This document shows, one piece after another, positions 22,789 through 31,086 of a stretch of DNA of 64,000 nucleotides. Positions within the stretch are counted from its first letter, which is position 1, and each line of letters begins with the position of its first letter. A model generated the notes under the pieces. It was given only the letters and a program-made list of their open reading frames with translations. It made no database searches and was not told where the DNA came from. The stretch lies in the IMG/VR virus record IMGVR_UViG_2693429713_000009. One strand, given 5' to 3'. The translations under genes and the position numbers were made by a program. Source of the stretch: a virus (taxonomy: Duplodnaviria; Heunggongvirae; Uroviricota; Caudoviricetes).

Positions 22789-23100
22789 ATGAAGAAAATA
22801 GATTTCACTTACTCTGCTGCCACAATCCAGCGACGTTTCAGTCTCATAAGGGAAGTAGAACTATCAAAAAACTGTTATCAAATTCTACTGGATGAAGAGT
22901 TTTCGCTGATGATAATGGCAGAAAAATTGGCTATGCCGAATGACCGGCACAAAGTCATTGCCAGCCTGGATCTGGTGACAAATAGATACAGGGAAACAGA
23001 GGAACTACGTGAAGCGGGAGCAATGCGTGACCTGATGGATAATTCCGTTCCCCGTCGTTATCGTACGGGGAACGACATCTCCGTGATTAAAGGGGCTTAA
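22789..23100 (+). CDS. hypothetical protein
   Basis: 103 aa ORF. Confidence 0.4.
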   Translation: MKKIDFTYSAATIQRRFSLIREVELSKNCYQILLDEEFSLMIMAEKLAMPNDRHKVIASLDLVTNRYRETEELREAGAMRDLMDNSVPRRYRTGNDISVIKGA

Positions 23101-23489
23101 AGCTCACCTGTGCGCTGTTTTTCAAGCACAGATTTAACATTTGGCGCTTTCCCTTTAAAAGAATGGAAAGTGCCACATTTTTCTGTTTTAACCTCGCGCA
23201 GAGCTTCTCCATCGGCGTTCTGCCATTGATGGGATAATGTCATATCACCGCGAGAAGGAACATCCAGCGAGTACAGCGTATAAGTTCCCCCCATCTCCGC
23301 ATACTCCTGGAACACATAGCTCATTACGTCAGATTCAGTTTTTCGGTGTGCGTTATCAACCTTATTCCCATTCAGAAATATGGCATCCGGATAGATTTTT
23401 ATATCAAACCGACCGCACTTAACTTGTAAATTTCCGGCGCTCGCGATCAAAGGGAAAGACGCCAGTAAAGCAATAGCCAATCTTTTCAA
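23097..23489 (-). CDS. secreted/periplasmic protein of unknown function
   Basis: 130 aa; signal peptide MKRLAIALLASFPLIASA. Confidence 0.5.
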   Translation of the reverse strand: MKRLAIALLASFPLIASAGNLQVKCGRFDIKIYPDAIFLNGNKVDNAHRKTESDVMSYVFQEYAEMGGTYTLYSLDVPSRGDMTLSHQWQNADGEALREVKTEKCGTFHSFKGKAPNVKSVLEKQRTGEL

Positions 23490-23509
23490 TTCTGCCTCCG
23501 CTGCGTAAC

Positions 23510-24133
23510 TTATTGCCCGTATTTTTTACACCATTGCTCTGCCATTTGTTTGGCTAAAGGCCCGGCTACTGCACTGTATTCTGCTGTTTTACTTTGCACA
23601 CATGAAGCAGATGGTTTTTTATTTCGCTGCTCGGTTAGTTTGCGCTCATAAGCCATCATGCTATCGAACCCGGCAATATCACTTTGGCGAAGCATTCCCT
23701 TTTTAACCAAAAATTGCTGCCCCTCGGGCACCAATGCAAGCATAAAAAGTGGTTGCAATAACTCACCTAATCCTTGCTGGCGATACACTTCGAATTGCTG
23801 CCATCCCTGACTTAATCTGGAAAGAGTATCTTTGGTTGAGTAACCTGTTTTTGTTATAGCTTTGTCCGTCAGATATGCTGTATATGCAAAAACGCAAAAG
23901 TCAGTTTTACCAATAAACTGAGTTCCAACAGGCCGTAATGGAATGCCCTCCCTCTTGCAAAAGTCCATAATGGCCGCTTGTGAATGATCCCCACCAGCGT
24001 TATTCATAACCTGCTGCCCTGCCCTGAATTGTGCAGGTAACGCAGTTGCATTGGCAGTATTAGCAGATACGCATCCCAACATAGCCGCGAGCGCGGCCCC
24101 TAAAACCCTTAACTTCACTACACCATCCTTCAT
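23510..24133 (-). CDS. putative lipoprotein or secreted protein
   Basis: 207 aa; signal peptide ending …AMLGCVSA (lipobox-like). Confidence 0.5.
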   Translation of the reverse strand: MKDGVVKLRVLGAALAAMLGCVSANTANATALPAQFRAGQQVMNNAGGDHSQAAIMDFCKREGIPLRPVGTQFIGKTDFCVFAYTAYLTDKAITKTGYSTKDTLSRLSQGWQQFEVYRQQGLGELLQPLFMLALVPEGQQFLVKKGMLRQSDIAGFDSMMAYERKLTEQRNKKPSASCVQSKTAEYSAVAGPLAKQMAEQWCKKYGQ

Positions 24134-24350
24134 GTAAACAAAATGAAGTTTTATGTTATAAAAACAATTAACTACATCAACATGATTTAGGCCAAATTTC
24201 GGTCAAAAAATAAAATCCACAAAAAGTGGTTGACACTATTTTGGAAATCACAAACTGCACATAATCCATCGCGCTAACGGCTCCCGTTGAAGGTTCTTTT
24301 GACGATTAACTTTCAGCCGAAGCGCGGTAGGGAGTCATAACGCCAAAGCA

Positions 24351-24374
24351 GGCCGCCATGTGCGGCCTTTTTTT
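24351..24374 (+). terminator. intrinsic terminator 28 bp upstream of the next start codon
   Basis: GGCCGC-catgt-GCGGCC followed by TTTTTTT; no plus-strand gene ends nearby. Confidence 0.5.
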
Positions 24375-24401
24375 GTATCCGTCATCCGTGGAGGAAGGAC
24401 A

Positions 24402-25055
24402 ATGGAAAAGATCGCAATATTCAGCCTGACCACCAGCAAGCCTCAAATGCTCACTGCAATACTGAAAGACGGTGCTCTCATTATTAACGAAGTAAAACCC
24501 CTTCCCGCGTCAGCATTGGAGCAAAAGCAAAAAATTCCTCCAGCTATAGCAGCCCTGCGGAAAAGCAAATTCAAGGTTCTAGTAGACGAAATTACGCCAA
24601 CGATCTCCGCTGGCACCGGAGCAAGCCAGGTGACTCTCAAGACCCGTCATGCCGATGGTAGAGCAGCAATCATCGTCGGGATGGAAAGATACAGAGAGTT
24701 AAAACTCCAGAAACTATTATCCCTGCCGCAAAATAACAAAGGTGCTTTCGAAATCCCCGACTCTATCGTTGATACCGAATACAACGGTAACGGAGAAGAA
24801 GTCTACAGGGTGAACTGGCAGGATATCAGGCCGGAGCATATTCTGATGATCCTGTGTTGCTACGCGACCGTATACCACAACGTTGCCAGTGCAGATTACG
24901 TAGAGCAGATGACCGGTACAGTCGAGAAAGAGCAAAAAACAGGCATACTCGCTTCGTTCCTGTCCATTATTGGGCATGAAAAAGTTAAAGCAGGCACCTC
25001 CCAGCCAAAGTCACTGGCTGGGAAAGAAGTTGATGAAGATACCGTGATACTTTGA
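24402..25055 (+). CDS. hypothetical protein
   Basis: 217 aa from ATG 24402 with GGAGGAAGG SD. Confidence 0.5.
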   Translation: MEKIAIFSLTTSKPQMLTAILKDGALIINEVKPLPASALEQKQKIPPAIAALRKSKFKVLVDEITPTISAGTGASQVTLKTRHADGRAAIIVGMERYRELKLQKLLSLPQNNKGAFEIPDSIVDTEYNGNGEEVYRVNWQDIRPEHILMILCCYATVYHNVASADYVEQMTGTVEKEQKTGILASFLSIIGHEKVKAGTSQPKSLAGKEVDEDTVIL

Positions 25056-25190
25056 TCACATTAGTAGCTTTGTTAACTCCCTCAATACCAGGTAGAAGAG
25101 TAACAAAAATATTGACGCGAGTATTTGAGTGGTCAATGAAGCGTTCATAAACAGATCAATTAGCATTAATAATTCGAAGATAACATCCAT
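25056..25190 (-). CDS. small hydrophobic peptide (44 aa) candidate, absent from the ORF track
   Basis: GGAG SD then MDVIFELLMLIDLFMNASLTTQILASIFLLLFYLVLRELTKLLM; convergent with and abutting the upstream gene. Confidence 0.25.
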   Translation of the reverse strand: MDVIFELLMLIDLFMNASLTTQILASIFLLLFYLVLRELTKLLM

Positions 25191-25383
25191 GTCATTCACT
25201 CCGTTTAATTTTTAATCTAATGCCAGCAAATGAAGCTGGCCCCCGCATAAAGATTAATGAAAGTCACTTGTCACCAGTGAGGGGATTTATGAACCACATC
25301 CCCCTGAACTGGTGGCCTGTCTGTTTCTCGCATTTCACACCCTGCATACAGTTTCCCCCAGGTTATGACTGAGAGGCTTTGTT

Positions 25384-25713
25384 ATGGGCTATAGCAGACT
25401 CGACGATAGGTACATTGAAGACGATATTTTTCGTGCGCTGTTTCACCAGGAAATGATTAAGCGGGTATCGGAGTATCACTCTGATAATTTCCAGTACACG
25501 ATAAAGATTGATGAAGTATATCGTTCAGACCTTGCAGCCTACAGGGCGTATGGCAATGCAGATTTGCGCTGGGTATTCCGGGTGCTGGTGGGCCATGAGT
25601 CAGAAATGGAAGAAATGCCCGCCGGGACCACGTTAACTCTTCCTGATGTGGCATGGCTGAGGAACAAGATCCGTGATTACGCGAGCGCGGAACCGGAGAT
25701 AGAAAATGCCTGA
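25384..25713 (+). CDS. hypothetical protein
   Basis: 109 aa; 8-nt overlap with downstream gene. Confidence 0.5.
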   Translation: MGYSRLDDRYIEDDIFRALFHQEMIKRVSEYHSDNFQYTIKIDEVYRSDLAAYRAYGNADLRWVFRVLVGHESEMEEMPAGTTLTLPDVAWLRNKIRDYASAEPEIENA

Positions 25714-26902
25714 TTTCCTGAAAAACCAGGACGGGCGCTATATCACTGACGGCCTGTCCTCTAAGGACTTCACGCGTTTATTCGACCTTATCAGGAAAGA
25801 ACAAACCCGTAAGCGCCGACAAGCTCACCGGACGCTGACGCCAGGTAGACTGAGGAACAAATCCGCCGAAGATATTCTCAAGTTAGGGAAGAAAAAAGGC
25901 GGCACGTTCTTCACGCGAGACGACCTGAAAGGTTTCGAAAAGCTACGGAGTAAAACACGCGAAAAATATGACAGCAAGACGGCTGGCATCACATACGCCC
26001 AGCTGGTGGCATCCAGCCAAGCAATCGATATTAAGCGTGCAAATAACGCCGTGGATGACGGATCTGGTATCAAAAGAGCTACACCCGTATCTCTTCGCCA
26101 CAACGTGATTAATATCCGCGTAGAAGCATCGGATATATCCGTCCACCAGCACCATATCGTCCGGATACGCTTTGAAGAATGGGATCAGATGGTCGATGAC
26201 ATCGCAGAAGACGATAAATCAGCCCTGAAAATCACTAAATCACTGTGCGCCGGGCGGGTGTCTTTCGATTGTGACTGTGGTCGTCATCAATACTGGTATC
26301 GTTACATCGCTACTGCGGGTAACTTTGCCCTGGCCCCGCCAAAAGAATACGCCTATCCAAAAGTTCGTAACCCTAAGCTACAAGGCGTCGCCTGTAAACA
26401 CGTGATCCACTCAATGACGCGGTTACAGTCCGCTAGTTGGCAAATGAGTATTGCTCGTGCGTTACAAAAGGCCGCAACGCAAATTGCATTTGGTGACGAT
26501 CGCCGCCGTACAACCAAACACTTCTCAAAAGAAGACGAGAGGGAGTTTAATCGCAATCGCAACAGTAAAACAAACGTTGACGTTGCCAAGCGCGAATGGA
26601 GGCTCTATCAGAAGCGCCAGGCCGCTTTAAGCACAAAACTGGCAAAGGACAACGGCAAAATTGACAAGCTACGTGACCAATTGACCAAAGCCAGAAAGTT
26701 GTCAGACGCACAGAAAAAACGGGCGGCAGCAAAAGAAGCGGCCTTGCAACGTGAGAAACAGAAAAACAAGGAGCTTCAGCAACGCCTTGCCGATCAGTTC
26801 GCACTGAAGAAGCAGGCGTTCATTGATGCGCTTGTCATGGCAGGAACGTCACCTGAGCAAGCTGAAAAAATGTTTATGGAGTATGTGAAGAAAGGTTCTT
26901 AA
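25706..26902 (+). CDS. SWIM-type zinc-finger protein with basic coiled-coil C-terminus
   Basis: 398 aa; CxCx(n)CxH pattern (FDCDCGRHQYWY…GVACKHVIH); Lys/Arg/Gln-rich C-terminal third. Confidence 0.5.
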   Translation: MPDFLKNQDGRYITDGLSSKDFTRLFDLIRKEQTRKRRQAHRTLTPGRLRNKSAEDILKLGKKKGGTFFTRDDLKGFEKLRSKTREKYDSKTAGITYAQLVASSQAIDIKRANNAVDDGSGIKRATPVSLRHNVINIRVEASDISVHQHHIVRIRFEEWDQMVDDIAEDDKSALKITKSLCAGRVSFDCDCGRHQYWYRYIATAGNFALAPPKEYAYPKVRNPKLQGVACKHVIHSMTRLQSASWQMSIARALQKAATQIAFGDDRRRTTKHFSKEDEREFNRNRNSKTNVDVAKREWRLYQKRQAALSTKLAKDNGKIDKLRDQLTKARKLSDAQKKRAAAKEAALQREKQKNKELQQRLADQFALKKQAFIDALVMAGTSPEQAEKMFMEYVKKGS

Positions 26903-26935
26903 TTTACAACAAAGGCGGTTATCCCGCCTTTTATA

Positions 26936-27685
26936 TTACTTGTCCTTTGATGTCGATTGAGACTCATATATTGTCTCCACGTCATCTATTAATTTATTAA
27001 TACCCCACAATCCAGTGTCTTTATAAAAATCACTTTCTTCAATTGCTTTTAATAAATCGGCAAAATCTTCTTTGGTGGAAATCCTTTTATCTTTTGCTTT
27101 ATATATATCAACAATTACTTTTATACCGTGATACAGAGCCACTCTGGCACTCTCAATCTCTCTCTTCTTTTCTTCGATTGTATTCAGTATTTTTTGTTGA
27201 CCTTCTATTTGTTCCTCTAATTTTAAAAGCTCTTCCTCTTTTTTCTTTAGGTTTCTCAGTAACGCCTTTACTCTTGCTTTCTCTTCTGAGTCAAATTCAT
27301 GGTCAATGTATCTTATTTGCGCATAATTTCTACCAGTTAGTTTTGATATACGCATAGTAATATAAGGCATTACTATGGACGCAATAGTGCCATATATAAA
27401 CGGCATCACAAAGTGAGCTAAAAACGGAGATACAATGAAGGTTCCAAAATAAGGGATTTGATATTTATCCCCTACCCATACTATAGACAGTGTTGTGTAT
27501 ATATCATATTTAGATTTAAACAAAATTAGTATTTCTTGCCAATTAACGACAAAAAATGAAACCACCACATATGCAAATAATTTATTAAATAATTTATCTT
27601 TTATGGCTTCATCCATTGTGCCCTTGATTGAGTCAATTGTAGATGTGTTTTCTGTTGATGAATTTTTGCTCATACAAGCTATCAA
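26936..27685 (-). CDS. membrane protein with C-terminal coiled coil; candidate exclusion/abortive-infection cargo
   Basis: 249 aa; strongly AT-rich relative to flanks; two predicted TM helices then coiled coil. Confidence 0.45.
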   Translation of the reverse strand: MIACMSKNSSTENTSTIDSIKGTMDEAIKDKLFNKLFAYVVVSFFVVNWQEILILFKSKYDIYTTLSIVWVGDKYQIPYFGTFIVSPFLAHFVMPFIYGTIASIVMPYITMRISKLTGRNYAQIRYIDHEFDSEEKARVKALLRNLKKKEEELLKLEEQIEGQQKILNTIEEKKREIESARVALYHGIKVIVDIYKAKDKRISTKEDFADLLKAIEESDFYKDTGLWGINKLIDDVETIYESQSTSKDK

Positions 27686-27735
27686 ACCTTCTAATTTTTA
27701 TTTTAGATAAAAAGCGGTCCTCCAGACCGCCAAAC

Positions 27736-28095
27736 TTAAACACCAACCAGACTTTCCAGTGGAATACCAAACTGGGCATGTAAACGACGAATCATAGGTA
27801 ACGTCAAATTTCGTGTCCCATTAAGCACTTCGTAAACACGGTTTGACTTACCAATTGCCGGTTCCAGATCCTTCACGGTCAGCCCTTGCTGTTCCATACG
27901 GAATTTAATGGCCTCAATAGGTGATGGTGGCTCAATTGGGTAATGTTTTTTCTCGTACTCCTCAATGAGAAGACACATAACCTCAAAGAAATCGCCTTCC
28001 GGTGTGTTCATTTCCGGTTCATTATCGAACATCGGTTCGACCGCACGCAGTGCGGCCTCATAATCTTGTTCTGTACGGATAGGTTTAATGTTCAT
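27736..28095 (-). CDS. higA: HigA-family antitoxin (HTH-XRE)
   Basis: 119 aa; C-terminal HTH (…GLTVKDLEPAIGKSNRVYEVLNGTRNLTL…); downstream of toxin gene as in higBA. Confidence 0.65.
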   Translation of the reverse strand: MNIKPIRTEQDYEAALRAVEPMFDNEPEMNTPEGDFFEVMCLLIEEYEKKHYPIEPPSPIEAIKFRMEQQGLTVKDLEPAIGKSNRVYEVLNGTRNLTLPMIRRLHAQFGIPLESLVGV

Positions 28096-28098
28096 GAT

Positions 28099-28401
28099 TT
28101 ACTCCAGTTCTATTGTATCCGCTTCAATGGCATCGTATTCCTTATGTGTTCCAATAAACTTAACGAACATCCATCCTCGCTGATAAGCAATTGCGACAAT
28201 TAACCTGTAATCATTTCCCTTAATATTGAACACCACGCGCCTGTTTTTAAGGATGCTGGCTGTCCGGTACTGTTCTTTGATCTCAGCCGGATTTTTCCAG
28301 TCAGCCTTTGTTGCTTCATCAACCCATGCCTTTAATGGCTGTTCTGCATCGGGATTCTTCGCCCAGAAATCCCTTAGTGTTTTTACCGAAATTATTTTCA
28401 T
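28099..28401 (-). CDS. higB: HigB-family toxin (RelE/ParE fold mRNA interferase)
   Basis: 100 aa from ATG 28401 (MKIISVKTLRDFW…VKFIGTHKEYD); GAAGGAA SD; toxin-first gene order. Confidence 0.65.
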   Translation of the reverse strand: MKIISVKTLRDFWAKNPDAEQPLKAWVDEATKADWKNPAEIKEQYRTASILKNRRVVFNIKGNDYRLIVAIAYQRGWMFVKFIGTHKEYDAIEADTIELE

Positions 28402-28431
28402 CACAGATTCCTTCTCTCTGAAAGTATAGTA

Positions 28432-28477
28432 GTCCCAATATGGGACAATGTAAAGCACTTTAGTCCCATGCTGGGAT
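28432..28477. promoter_or_regulatory. higBA operator candidates (two palindromes)
   Basis: GTCCCAATATGGGAC (28432-28446) and GTCCCATGCTGGGA (28463-28476) just upstream of higB start. Confidence 0.5.
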
Positions 28478-28546
28478 ATGAATTGAAATCACAATCTCCA
28501 GACAATGCACCCTCGATACCTGATAAATCGACCTTTGAGGATGCTT

Positions 28547-29338
28547 ATGGGCCGTTTTGACGAATGGTTTGCTGACGATGCAAACCTGGCAAGTAAGAAG
28601 TCAGAACATGACAGCACGCAGAGAGAAACGCCAGCGCCGATTGAAGCGAATGCAGGAGGCACGCCGGAACATGGCAATACCGGTTCGGATTCATTCAGCA
28701 TTCTGGAAGAGCAACCCGCCGCCAAAGCTGATAGCCATGATAATTTTGCTGATAGCAACGGTGGCCTTACTCCGGATGCTGGCGAATCAGATATAGCCAT
28801 ACTTCCACCTTCCCTGGCTGGCAGAGAACCAACTCCACAGCTAAAAGCACGCTATAACGGGCATAAAGCCTTTAACGACCAAATCCGCGCAGACTGGATG
28901 CTGATTATTGAATCCAGCCCAGACGCGTTTCAGGCTCTCTTATATCGACCAGATGTTGGCACATATGGGGTAGTCAGCGACGAAACAGGAGAAGAGTCAT
29001 TCACTGAACTGGATAACAACCAACGCGAACTGACTTACCAGGAACCTGAAATCGTTTATGTGCTGGATAACCCGGACGGGCGTGACTCTTTCCATGCGAT
29101 TGACGCAGACGGTGAGCAGGATGGTTTAACCGATGATGTTCTGATTCTGCGTATTGCAGCAAATAACGTCCCCGTCGGATCAATTCTTGAATGGAATGAA
29201 GAGATGGTAAACGGCGTAGCCCGCCGCTGGTGGTACGTGCACCGTATTTTTAGCTACGGCACACAGCATGTTGGTTCGCTTTACTACTGCATACCTGCCA
29301 GAAATTTTGATACGACTCAAAACGGAGTGATCGAATGA
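28547..29338 (+). CDS. hypothetical phage protein (start uncertain)
   Basis: 263 aa from ATG 28547; acidic N-terminal half. Confidence 0.45.
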   Translation: MGRFDEWFADDANLASKKSEHDSTQRETPAPIEANAGGTPEHGNTGSDSFSILEEQPAAKADSHDNFADSNGGLTPDAGESDIAILPPSLAGREPTPQLKARYNGHKAFNDQIRADWMLIIESSPDAFQALLYRPDVGTYGVVSDETGEESFTELDNNQRELTYQEPEIVYVLDNPDGRDSFHAIDADGEQDGLTDDVLILRIAANNVPVGSILEWNEEMVNGVARRWWYVHRIFSYGTQHVGSLYYCIPARNFDTTQNGVIE

Positions 29339-30102
29339 CTTCAAATAAAACCCTCCTGGCGCGAACAGGTGAATGGCAAACATCACGCACAGGAAAATTC
29401 CAGACCACGGGCTTTGAAAACGTGGATAACGCGTTTGCTACGCTAATCAGCAATATCTTTTCTGATATCTTACTGGTGGCCCCCGCGCCGGAAGAAAAAC
29501 GCTTTGCGTCATTCCTGAATCGTCCACCAGCAGAGCGTGTCTATGTGGCCCGTTTTGACAATGCGATCGAGTTTCTTAAAGCAGTTCGTCGCGCAAATGC
29601 CGGGCAAGGGAGAAAACCTGAAAACCAGAACATTAACCGGGATGCTCTCCCCCTAGTCAATATCTCACGCACTATGGATATCAATTATATCAACGATGAT
29701 CAGCAGATTGACCGCAAAAAAGTAGCCAGTTTTTGCGAACCAGATACCGGAATGCCTTTAGCAGAACTGGAATACACCCAGGCCATTCTGACGTATGACG
29801 TTACGTTAATGGCAACTGATAAAGCGACCATGAGTCTGATGTGTAATTCGCTGGGCGCACGGCTTCGCCTGATGACAGGTACACAATTTGAAGCAACCAC
29901 TCACCTTGTTCGTGTCCCGGTCCCGCTGATTTGCTCGATACAGGATGCCAAAGAAGTCGGCTTTACGGATGTTTCAGCACCAATTGGAGAAGAGCGTATT
30001 TATGCCACACAAGCGCCGATAAGTGTGATTGCAGACGTGATCACAGCATGGGAGTTGGACGCAAAACGTATTATTACCGAAACCTCGATATCTATGGGGT
30101 GA
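29335..30102 (+). CDS. hypothetical phage protein (probable tail/baseplate operon member)
   Basis: 255 aa; ATGA overlap with upstream gene. Confidence 0.5.
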   Translation: MTSNKTLLARTGEWQTSRTGKFQTTGFENVDNAFATLISNIFSDILLVAPAPEEKRFASFLNRPPAERVYVARFDNAIEFLKAVRRANAGQGRKPENQNINRDALPLVNISRTMDINYINDDQQIDRKKVASFCEPDTGMPLAELEYTQAILTYDVTLMATDKATMSLMCNSLGARLRLMTGTQFEATTHLVRVPVPLICSIQDAKEVGFTDVSAPIGEERIYATQAPISVIADVITAWELDAKRIITETSISMG

Positions 30103-30105
30103 TAA

Positions 30106-31086
30106 GTGGCCCAGGAGTTACAACAATATTTTCTACAGTCAGTGCTCATTAACGATAACAAAGTGCCACGAGACTGGATTTTTACCGCAGTATATGTAGA
30201 AAAAACCAGCCTCAAAGCCCCTTTGCTAAAACTGGAAATTCATGACGCTACCGGCACCGTAATTGATGACTGGAAAGCCAAATACGGTGCATCGCTGGTG
30301 GCTGAAATGGGCGATCCAAACGGTAATGCAGGCACTTTTAAAACAGATTTCTTTGTTACGTCTGCAATGCTGGCTGGTGATGTTGTTACCGTTATTGCTG
30401 TCAGTGAAGACGTGCGTAGGTTTAAGATCCCCTCCCCGCGCACAAATTTACATACCAACAAAACACCAGACGCTATATTCAAGGCATATTCCGGCAAGCT
30501 TAAAATTACCAGCAGCGTGCTAAAACGCGCAGTTACATATCATCTGAATGCCGGTGACAAACCGTCAAAAATGCTTTCGGAGATAGCGCGAGACAAAGGT
30601 GCATTATGTTGGGTATGCCGGGGGGAATTTAACTTTTACACCCTGGCTGATCTGATGAAGCAAACGCCATCATTTACCTACGAGGGGAATAACCCTAAAG
30701 CAGAATACACTTTGTCCAAAATGCGCCTACTCCAACAGGAACATGCGACAACAGCAAAGAATCAATATCGTTTTGTTGGGTATTCCATGACCGATGGCTA
30801 CGTCGAATATGGCGATAGCTCACTCCCAGTGCGTTATATATCCGACTCTGATATGGAAACTCTTCGCAATATGCAGCTGTCTCTCGTCCCCAAAATGGAT
30901 ATAGAAGTCGCAGGCAATCCTGATATAAAACCGGGGATGGTGATAGAGATTATCGTATACCGCTATGACCAGGAAAACCGCATTGATGAATCAATGCCCC
31001 GTAAGCTAATAGTAAAAAATGTTGCGCACTTTGAAGACCGCGTAGGCTACACAACACGAATGATATTGGGAGTGCCGAACAAATGA
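30106..31086 (+). CDS. putative tail/baseplate protein
   Basis: 326 aa; coupled to the V-like spike gene downstream. Confidence 0.45.
   Translation: MAQELQQYFLQSVLINDNKVPRDWIFTAVYVEKTSLKAPLLKLEIHDATGTVIDDWKAKYGASLVAEMGDPNGNAGTFKTDFFVTSAMLAGDVVTVIAVSEDVRRFKIPSPRTNLHTNKTPDAIFKAYSGKLKITSSVLKRAVTYHLNAGDKPSKMLSEIARDKGALCWVCRGEFNFYTLADLMKQTPSFTYEGNNPKAEYTLSKMRLLQQEHATTAKNQYRFVGYSMTDGYVEYGDSSLPVRYISDSDMETLRNMQLSLVPKMDIEVAGNPDIKPGMVIEIIVYRYDQENRIDESMPRKLIVKNVAHFEDRVGYTTRMILGVPNK

Follow-up and report, generated by a model that had tools for sequence, protein, structure and literature searches.

What occupies the interval 25384-28477 of this phage genome, and which of its genes are cargo? The window, by which we mean the whole stretch of 64,000 nucleotides analysed (IMG/VR virus record IMGVR_UViG_2693429713_000009, Caudoviricetes), had been given a preliminary description in which the interval was taken for a single AT-rich cargo patch, encoding a SWIM zinc-finger protein, a membrane coiled-coil protein and a HigB-HigA toxin-antitoxin pair. 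The open reading frames (ORFs) listed there were all present where it had placed them. We find that 26911-28485 is, judged by gene order and homology, an accessory cassette inserted on the opposite strand into a core tail/baseplate operon. The reading that we favour for it, with a probability of about 0.5, is that HigBA addiction is combined in this cassette with protection of the lysogen by the membrane protein, whose gene is here called orfX.

Region 24000-30200 matched plasmid NZ_CP028198 of Salmonella enterica at 100% identity and Escherichia phage D6 at 96.6%, and this near identity identifies the window, at the sequence level, as a D6-like phage-plasmid of the P1 family. The same region was matched by 122 plasmid records, mostly non-mobilizable, approximately 75-100 kb in size and from E. 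coli, Salmonella or Shigella, hosts in which phage-plasmids of the P1/D6 group are common; a scan of species-representative genomes found no relative, and an Rfam scan of 24000-30000 gave no match. In P1, the late operon is contiguous in the order 26-25-7-24-6-5, with gene 7 beginning 3 nt past gene 25, and the same order is uninterrupted in the Cronobacter JK004, Leclercia and Yersinia ruckeri phage-plasmids. When 33 D6-type and related loci were compared, a reverse-strand insert was present exactly at the 25|7 junction in all D6-clade loci examined. In the window gene 25 and gene 7 are kept apart by approximately 1.6 kb of insert, in which higB and higA are followed by a hairpin with a T-run, then by orfX and finally by a terminator hairpin common with gene 25. 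The patch had been placed between the immunity-proximal genes and the baseplate operon; the insert lies instead inside the baseplate/tail operon.

The toxin-antitoxin pair proposed for this locus was confirmed by homology, and is a predicted type II system of the E. coli HigBA (5ifg/5ycl) type. HigB matched PF09907 with 116.8 bits (cut-off 27) and HigA matched the helix-turn-helix (HTH) family HTH_3 with 24.1 bits (cut-off 23); the toxin gene, the start of which was corrected to 28401, comes first and is followed after a 3-nt gap by higA. Operator palindromes had been claimed at 28432-28477, and two putative ones were found there, GTCCCA-N3-TGGGAC at 28432-28446 and GTCCCA-N3-TGGGAT at 28463-28477. 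The pattern GTCCCANNNTGGGA (GTCCCA-N3-TGGGA) occurs in the window only at 28432 and 28463, where 0.02 matches are expected by chance, and the proximal palindrome sits between the -35 and -10 elements of TTTACA-17-TACTAT. HigA would probably repress the promoter through these two candidate operators. In published work on D6-like plasmids, higA-higB is named as a killing system that they carry (PMC6799933), and a role for HigBA as a plasmid-addiction module agrees with that annotation; post-segregational killing by the presumed toxin is the likely means by which the phage-plasmid would be kept in the cell line.

The second component, orfX (26936-27673, minus strand), has a guanine-plus-cytosine (GC) content of 0.317 against a window mean of 0.466 (z = -4.4) and is the most AT-rich 738-bp stretch of the 64 kb, which bears out the AT-richness reported for 26936-27685; all orfX alleles are AT-rich, with GC between 0.28 and 0.36, which points to a foreign composition. 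The most likely start codon is the ATG at 27673, which makes the protein 245 rather than 249 amino acids (aa) long. The two transmembrane helices and long coiled coil that had been predicted were likewise recovered, as hydrophobic segments at residues 32-52 and 79-102 (Kyte-Doolittle, 19-residue window, threshold at least 1.6) and as a long helix over residues 83-193 in an AlphaFold2 (AF2) model. A match of orfX to DUF6947 (E 0.005) was below threshold and was disregarded.

The gene content and alleles of the locus differed among near-identical relatives, in keeping with the variability that had been anticipated for it, and invariance was not seen. The locus is strongly modular and has undergone three independent kinds of change. 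In D6 and most of its relatives, higB and its promoter (28103-28485) are swapped for a RelE/ParE toxin with a TIGR02607 HigA antitoxin, and the original higA survives in D6-type loci as an orphan gene, at full length or shortened to 65 aa. From at least 10 PLSDB plasmids orfX is missing altogether; the deletion runs exactly between the two hairpins (26923-27709), and these plasmids carry a single hairpin in its place. The right-hand hairpin (27713-27731) is kept in most alleles and lost in the L019 class. Where orfX is present, its alleles fall into groups that share 49-85% identity in the N-terminal domain and 15-25% in the C-terminal domain, while the flanking proteins are 97-100% identical; only 4 of 156 orfX-bearing PLSDB records are at least 90% identical to the allele of the window. 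DNA homology to D6 is lost over 26895-27500 (the orfX C-domain) and over 28103-28485 (the toxin module).

Between orfX allele groups the synonymous divergence (dS) is saturated, at 1 or above, and the ratio of nonsynonymous to synonymous divergence (dN/dS) is 0.08-0.34 (0.17-0.34 in the C-domain), on backbones that differ by about 3%. From the saturated dS, the low dN/dS and the small backbone difference we infer that the alleles are old and functional and have been moved by recombination, as opposed to evolving fast or decaying. The fixed insertion site in an essential tail operon, at which toxin modules and the putative specificity half of the membrane protein are exchanged between near-identical backbones, offers a clean natural setting in which to study the carriage and exchange, by temperate phages, of genes that benefit the lysogen.

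A profile search of 1.8 billion representatives returned 79 orfX clusters at E ≤ 1e-3, in which no Pfam domain beyond coiled-coil noise was found; what the family has in common is its membrane domain at the N-terminus. Nothing useful came from a further large protein search with a wide orfX alignment. A diverged second triad is present on a Klebsiella pneumoniae IncFIB plasmid (HigB 25%, HigA 29% with E 3e-13, and orfX approximately 42% identical to those of the window), and a nearly identical triad, matching the Klebsiella copy at 99/99/89%, sits at the 25|7 junction of an Enterobacter-type D6 relative, the gp25 of which bears a name from Enterobacter hormaechei; the three genes thus move as a set from one type of replicon to another. 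On a 97-kb phage-plasmid of Citrobacter freundii (NZ_CP145667, L053 5787-7720), the baseplate/tail cluster holds TacA-TacT, a higA-like remnant and an orfX homologue, the last on the same strand as the surrounding baseplate/tail genes. This order suggests that the occupant of the toxin slot upstream of orfX has been exchanged more than once. A P2-like prophage carries a lone reverse-strand orfX homologue between gpV and gpS (BLAST to D6 orf73, 5e-11), and another family member lies in an island with a methylase, DUF4942 and H-NS.

These contexts bear directly on the main rival explanation, in which higB, higA and orfX form one obligatory three-part system like PD-lambda-2 or CmdTAC, the toxin-antitoxin pair being the trigger or regulator and orfX an accessory factor or effector without a function of its own. 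The whole triad does exist in two deeply diverged versions, and its three genes move together between phage-plasmids and a Klebsiella plasmid; orfX is reported always to lie downstream of the toxin-antitoxin promoter and on the same strand (homologues without the pair occur in the P2-like prophage and in Klebsiella grimontii); the higA-like remnant persists between TacT and orfX in Citrobacter; and the pair scores strongly on the PADLOC models PD-Lambda-2_A (HigB, 1.9e-41) and PD-Lambda-2_B (HigA, 6.9e-43, over positions 1-119 only of 402), models of a system whose third gene is needed for defence (PMC9519451). However, D6 and most D6-like loci, which have another toxin gene in place of higB and a higA that is orphaned or cut to 65 aa, still carry an intact orfX under purifying selection, its homologues in the P2-like prophage and K. 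grimontii have no toxin-antitoxin pair, and higBA occurs without orfX in some plasmids and in JK004. The partner families, HigBA, RelE/ParE-HigA and TacAT, are moreover mutually non-homologous. On balance we consider an obligatory system improbable.

The recurrence of orfX in the tail/baseplate clusters of three temperate myovirus lineages, with the Citrobacter copy on the strand of the tail genes, might also point to a membrane factor serving as an accessory of phage morphogenesis, injection or lysis. Such a role is very unlikely; P1 and the JK004, Leclercia and Yersinia relatives have no orfX, nor do at least 10 D6-like plasmids in which the set of tail genes is complete, D6-like and P2-like elements carry it on the opposite strand and behind terminator hairpins, it is found on a non-phage Klebsiella plasmid, and its GC is far from that of the late genes.

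The favoured combination of HigBA addiction with lysogen protection would work as follows. The cassette is probably expressed from the plasmid-prophage during lysogeny, and orfX is probably transcribed by read-through of the weak hairpin behind higA, so that its level may follow derepression of the toxin-antitoxin promoter. Its product would be an inner-membrane protein in which a membrane domain with two segments is conserved and the cytoplasmic coiled-coil C-domain exists as many old, mutually unrecognisable alleles shuffled by recombination. The exchangeable C-domain would recognise a phage component and so confer specificity, and the membrane domain would either block DNA entry (exclusion) or damage the membrane (abortive infection). 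We advance this reading of orfX because of its topology, its placement, the contexts of its family and its old, exchangeable alleles. A role in phage exclusion or abortive infection is plausible on these grounds; that orfX shields the lysogen from rival phages, the C-domain determining specificity and the membrane domain serving as effector, is offered tentatively. If orfX did block or abort infection with an allele-specific range, it would be a new family for the catalogue of defence and exclusion systems, and its domain swaps would give a handle on specificity.

Several results weigh against protection by orfX. No homology links it to a known defence or exclusion protein: searches of Pfam, PADLOC, NCBIfam and PDB sequences for its function gave nothing or coiled-coil noise, and the AF2 model, built from 14 sequences, was poor (predicted local distance difference test score 65.5, predicted template-modelling score 0.28), with no Foldseek match in the PDB at E ≤ 0.001. 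A lead to "Effector 2TM" of the cyclic-oligonucleotide-based anti-phage signalling system (CBASS) was dropped; it came from a weak match of the Klebsiella homologue (PADLOC E 7e-4), just 1 of 42 family members scanned gave such a match, and the protein of the window gave none. The dN/dS test on orfX found no positive selection. No convincing promoter was found for orfX, for which the scan performed no better than chance, and its expression in the lysogen is assumed. Finally, a position beside a toxin-antitoxin pair and in a tail operon is also expected of a neutral or selfish passenger of a hotspot. One idea about its expression, that the 3' part of higA is kept as an orfX promoter, was rejected, because in the L019 class it is the 5' part that the truncated higA retains, whereas the HTH domain and the hairpin are gone.

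The passenger argument can be extended to the whole cassette, which would then be a maintenance and passenger unit: HigBA would stabilise the plasmid-prophage, and orfX would have some other function in the lysogen, such as envelope or stress physiology, lysis timing or exclusion of plasmids rather than phages, or would be a selfish passenger persisting by linkage to the toxin-antitoxin pair. The published killing system of D6-like elements (PMC6799933), the lack of any defence-family signal for orfX, its dispensability in at least 10 plasmids and the occurrence of some distant members among ordinary chromosomal genes are all consistent with this. The many ancient C-domain alleles on near-identical backbones nevertheless fit frequency-dependent conflict better than housekeeping, and the family recurs in prophage tail operons and in mobile or defence-type islands, so that we regard a passenger unit as unlikely.

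A more ambitious version of the protective role is more doubtful still. Here orfX would stand for a hitherto undescribed family of anti-phage or exclusion proteins, modular and anchored in the membrane, and would act as the effector of a tripartite, toxin-antitoxin-gated system; a two-segment "executor" domain and an exchangeable coiled-coil "specificity" domain would have stood ancestrally behind a HigBA promoter that gated their expression. Temperate myoviruses (D6-like, P2-like and Citrobacter phage-plasmids) would, on the same rather improbable account, carry orfX in their tail operons and trade it with large plasmids.

Genes 26 and 25 (25384-26902) stand apart from all of this. The preliminary description had read them as an operon of cargo, unless their homologues should prove to be conserved virion components, and homologues of conserved P1 virion/baseplate genes are what they are. 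In the D6 annotation, similarity to P1 gene 26 is noted for the 109-aa ORF and to P1 gene 25 for the 398-aa ORF; the PHROG families matched are a baseplate wedge and a tail protein, respectively, and the 398-aa protein is 57% identical to P1 gp25, for which 298 homologues were found, many on contigs of approximately 80-100 kb, the size of phage-plasmids, from numerous Enterobacterales. The homology of gp26 and gp25, together with the P1 gene order beside mat and 7-24-6-5, places the two genes in a late operon of the P1 family, and they form a syntenic core in all P1-family elements examined. Across D6-like loci the gene 26 homologue is 100% identical and the two genes together are 97-100% conserved. 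In P1, gp26 is a T4 gp53-like wedge protein that has been placed in the cryo-electron microscopy model of the baseplate, whereas gp25 and gp7 are weakly detected in virions (gp25 with liquid chromatography coupled to tandem mass spectrometry) and their exact roles are not established. The GC of genes 26 and 25, at 0.49, is normal for the window, so the interval is not one AT-rich unit.

Together these data indicate that genes 26 and 25 are, by homology and synteny, conserved core phage genes and not cargo, and that they lie outside the cassette. Extending an accessory defence or exclusion hotspot over the whole of 25384-28477, SWIM-finger operon included, would accommodate a real SWIM-like motif and a variable neighbouring cassette, but is already contradicted by the synteny, conservation, normal GC and P1 virion/baseplate evidence of genes 26/25, and has next to no probability. 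What stands of the hotspot is 26911-28485, with its variable higBA and membrane/coiled-coil gene; 25384-26902 does not belong to it. Since the "SWIM protein" is P1 gp25, it is no defence candidate and should not be mined as one.

The zinc finger ascribed to gp25 was upheld as a motif and not as a domain family. The residues C189-x-C191...C230-x-H232, which present the CxCxnCxH signature, are invariant in 6 divergent phages and in 29 homologues, and the CxC...CxH stretch is the most conserved part of gp25 from D6-like elements to Xanthomonas and Acinetobacter phages. The Pfam SWIM model (PF04434), however, did not match gp25 even at E ≤ 10, and no precomputed Pfam domain was found in any of 120 gp25 homologues among the matches listed. 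ZSWIM8 (9rwz) was the top structural match to gp25; a Foldseek search found nothing. Canonical SWIM spacers measure approximately 6-25 residues. With 38 residues between C191 and C230, gp25 thus differs from SWIM zinc fingers (PF04434; ZSWIM8, 9rwz) in the length of its spacer as well as in the missing Pfam profile match and negative Foldseek search. We treat the motif as SWIM-like and gp25 not as a predicted member of the SWIM family; a conserved zinc-finger-like motif is a useful clue for a P1 protein the role of which is still unclear.

Table 1. Positions in the window of the cassette features and of the core genes on either side of it.
Feature	Position	Strand	Evidence
P1 gene 26 homologue (T4 gp53-like baseplate wedge subunit), 109 aa	25384..25713	+	phrog_1269 2.3e-36
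P1 gene 25 homologue ("tail stability"), 398 aa, basic coiled-coil tail	25706..26902	+	phrog_1722 5.2e-196
SWIM-like CxC...CxH motif (C189, C191, C230, H232), 38-residue spacer	26270..26401	+	
Terminator hairpin where the stops of gene 25 and orfX converge; left boundary of the polymorphism in which orfX is present or absent	26911..26931	.	terminator scan, sequence
orfX C-terminal domain, residues 121-245: predicted cytoplasmic coiled coil and helical end; hypervariable	26936..27313	-	allele identity
orfX N-terminal domain, residues 1-120: two hydrophobic segments, motif KDKLFNK..FAY...NW; family-defining	27314..27673	-	hydropathy; identity
Hairpin with T-run after the higA stop, putative partial terminator before orfX; right edge of the presence/absence polymorphism	27713..27731	-	terminator scan
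higA antitoxin/Xre-type HTH regulator, 119 aa	27736..28095	-	Pfam HTH_3; PDB HigA 5ifg/5ycl ~2.7e-8
higB toxin (RelE-like mRNA interferase family), 100 aa	28099..28401	-	Pfam HigB_toxin 4.9e-34; PDB HigB 1.1e-7
higBA promoter TTTACA-17-TACTAT and two candidate operator palindromes	28426..28477	-	promoter and pattern scans
P1 gene 7 homologue; late tail/baseplate operon (7-24-6-5) resumes	28547..29338	+	phrog_1906 3.6e-116, D6 annotation

At the right-hand end of the insert, HigB-type and D6-type spacers regain homology at TATGAAT (28477-28483), abutting the distal higBA operator. Gene 7 is separated from the gene 26 promoter by a terminator and the reverse-strand cassette, and therefore needs a promoter of its own; no P1-type late promoter could be defined upstream of gene 7, where the promoter scan did no better than chance. 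Elsewhere in the window, 23097-24133 (minus strand) holds two ORFs of 130 aa and 207 aa with signal-peptide-like N-termini, which match two PHROGs of unknown function, 13864 and 12786. At the corresponding place in phage D6 there is a homologue of simB, and the stretch, which adjoins mat, may be another variable accessory locus.

Further relatives of the cassette genes were observed at other sites. In L044 (4309-5732) a distant member of the orfX family, P0051, directly follows, at 12 bp, a DUF4145 gene whose product matches PD-T7-4, a defence system made of a single gene (E 4.8e-13), and resolvase genes adjoin both. The chromosome of K. grimontii (L009, 6001-8345) carries a D6-like remnant with genes 26 and 25 (81% identity), convergent with an orfX homologue; the tail of gene 25 was recovered in a second tblastn piece, the orfX homologue follows umuDC with no higBA, and a Cap4 nuclease gene and hicAB are nearby. 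In Cronobacter phage JK004 (L004, 2528-3252), a Klebsiella-type higB/HTH pair (85% identity) lies upstream of mat, at another site and with no orfX there.

How, then, does the cassette compare with systems already described? With the E. coli HigB/HigA type II system (5ifg, 5ycl) the pair shares the toxin-first order, a HigB_toxin domain and an Xre-HTH antitoxin (sequence matches of approximately 1e-7 to 1e-8) and paired putative operator palindromes overlapping the promoter; it differs in that it lies inside a phage tail operon on a phage-plasmid and is followed on the same strand by the gene of a membrane protein. PD-lambda-2 is likewise made of three consecutive genes, the third being an accessory component, and strong scores on its PADLOC models come from the first gene, which is HigB-like, and from the HigA-like beginning of the second. 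As defined by Vassallo et al. (2022), however, the second protein of PD-lambda-2 joins a HigA-like HTH to a C-terminal peptidase, and the third, which is needed for defence and not for neutralisation, is related to a P4 phage antitoxin (PMC9519451). The HigA of the cassette, at 119 aa, has no ImmA/IrrE peptidase domain, and the third gene encodes a membrane/coiled-coil protein that is not P4-antitoxin-like and had no PADLOC match at E ≤ 0.01; membership of PD-lambda-2 was rejected for these reasons.

For orfX itself the nearest described relative is D6 orf73 (PHROG 8191, function unknown), to which it is 36.7% identical (phrog_8191, 1.4e-112) and which holds the same position, between gene 25 and antitoxin genes; D6 differs from the window in carrying another toxin module upstream of orf73. 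HK97 gp15 is reportedly an inner-membrane superinfection-exclusion protein encoded by a prophage moron in a tail operon. Morons of this type, as generally described and compared here by arrangement rather than by homology, resemble orfX in being genes for a small membrane protein within the tail cluster of a temperate phage, set apart from the late genes by terminators and dispensable for the virion, whereas the variable part of orfX is a predicted cytoplasmic domain and not a periplasmic loop. With an uncharacterised family in its orfX position, the cassette thus combines familiar kinds of element, a toxin-antitoxin pair and a prophage moron, in a recombination hotspot.

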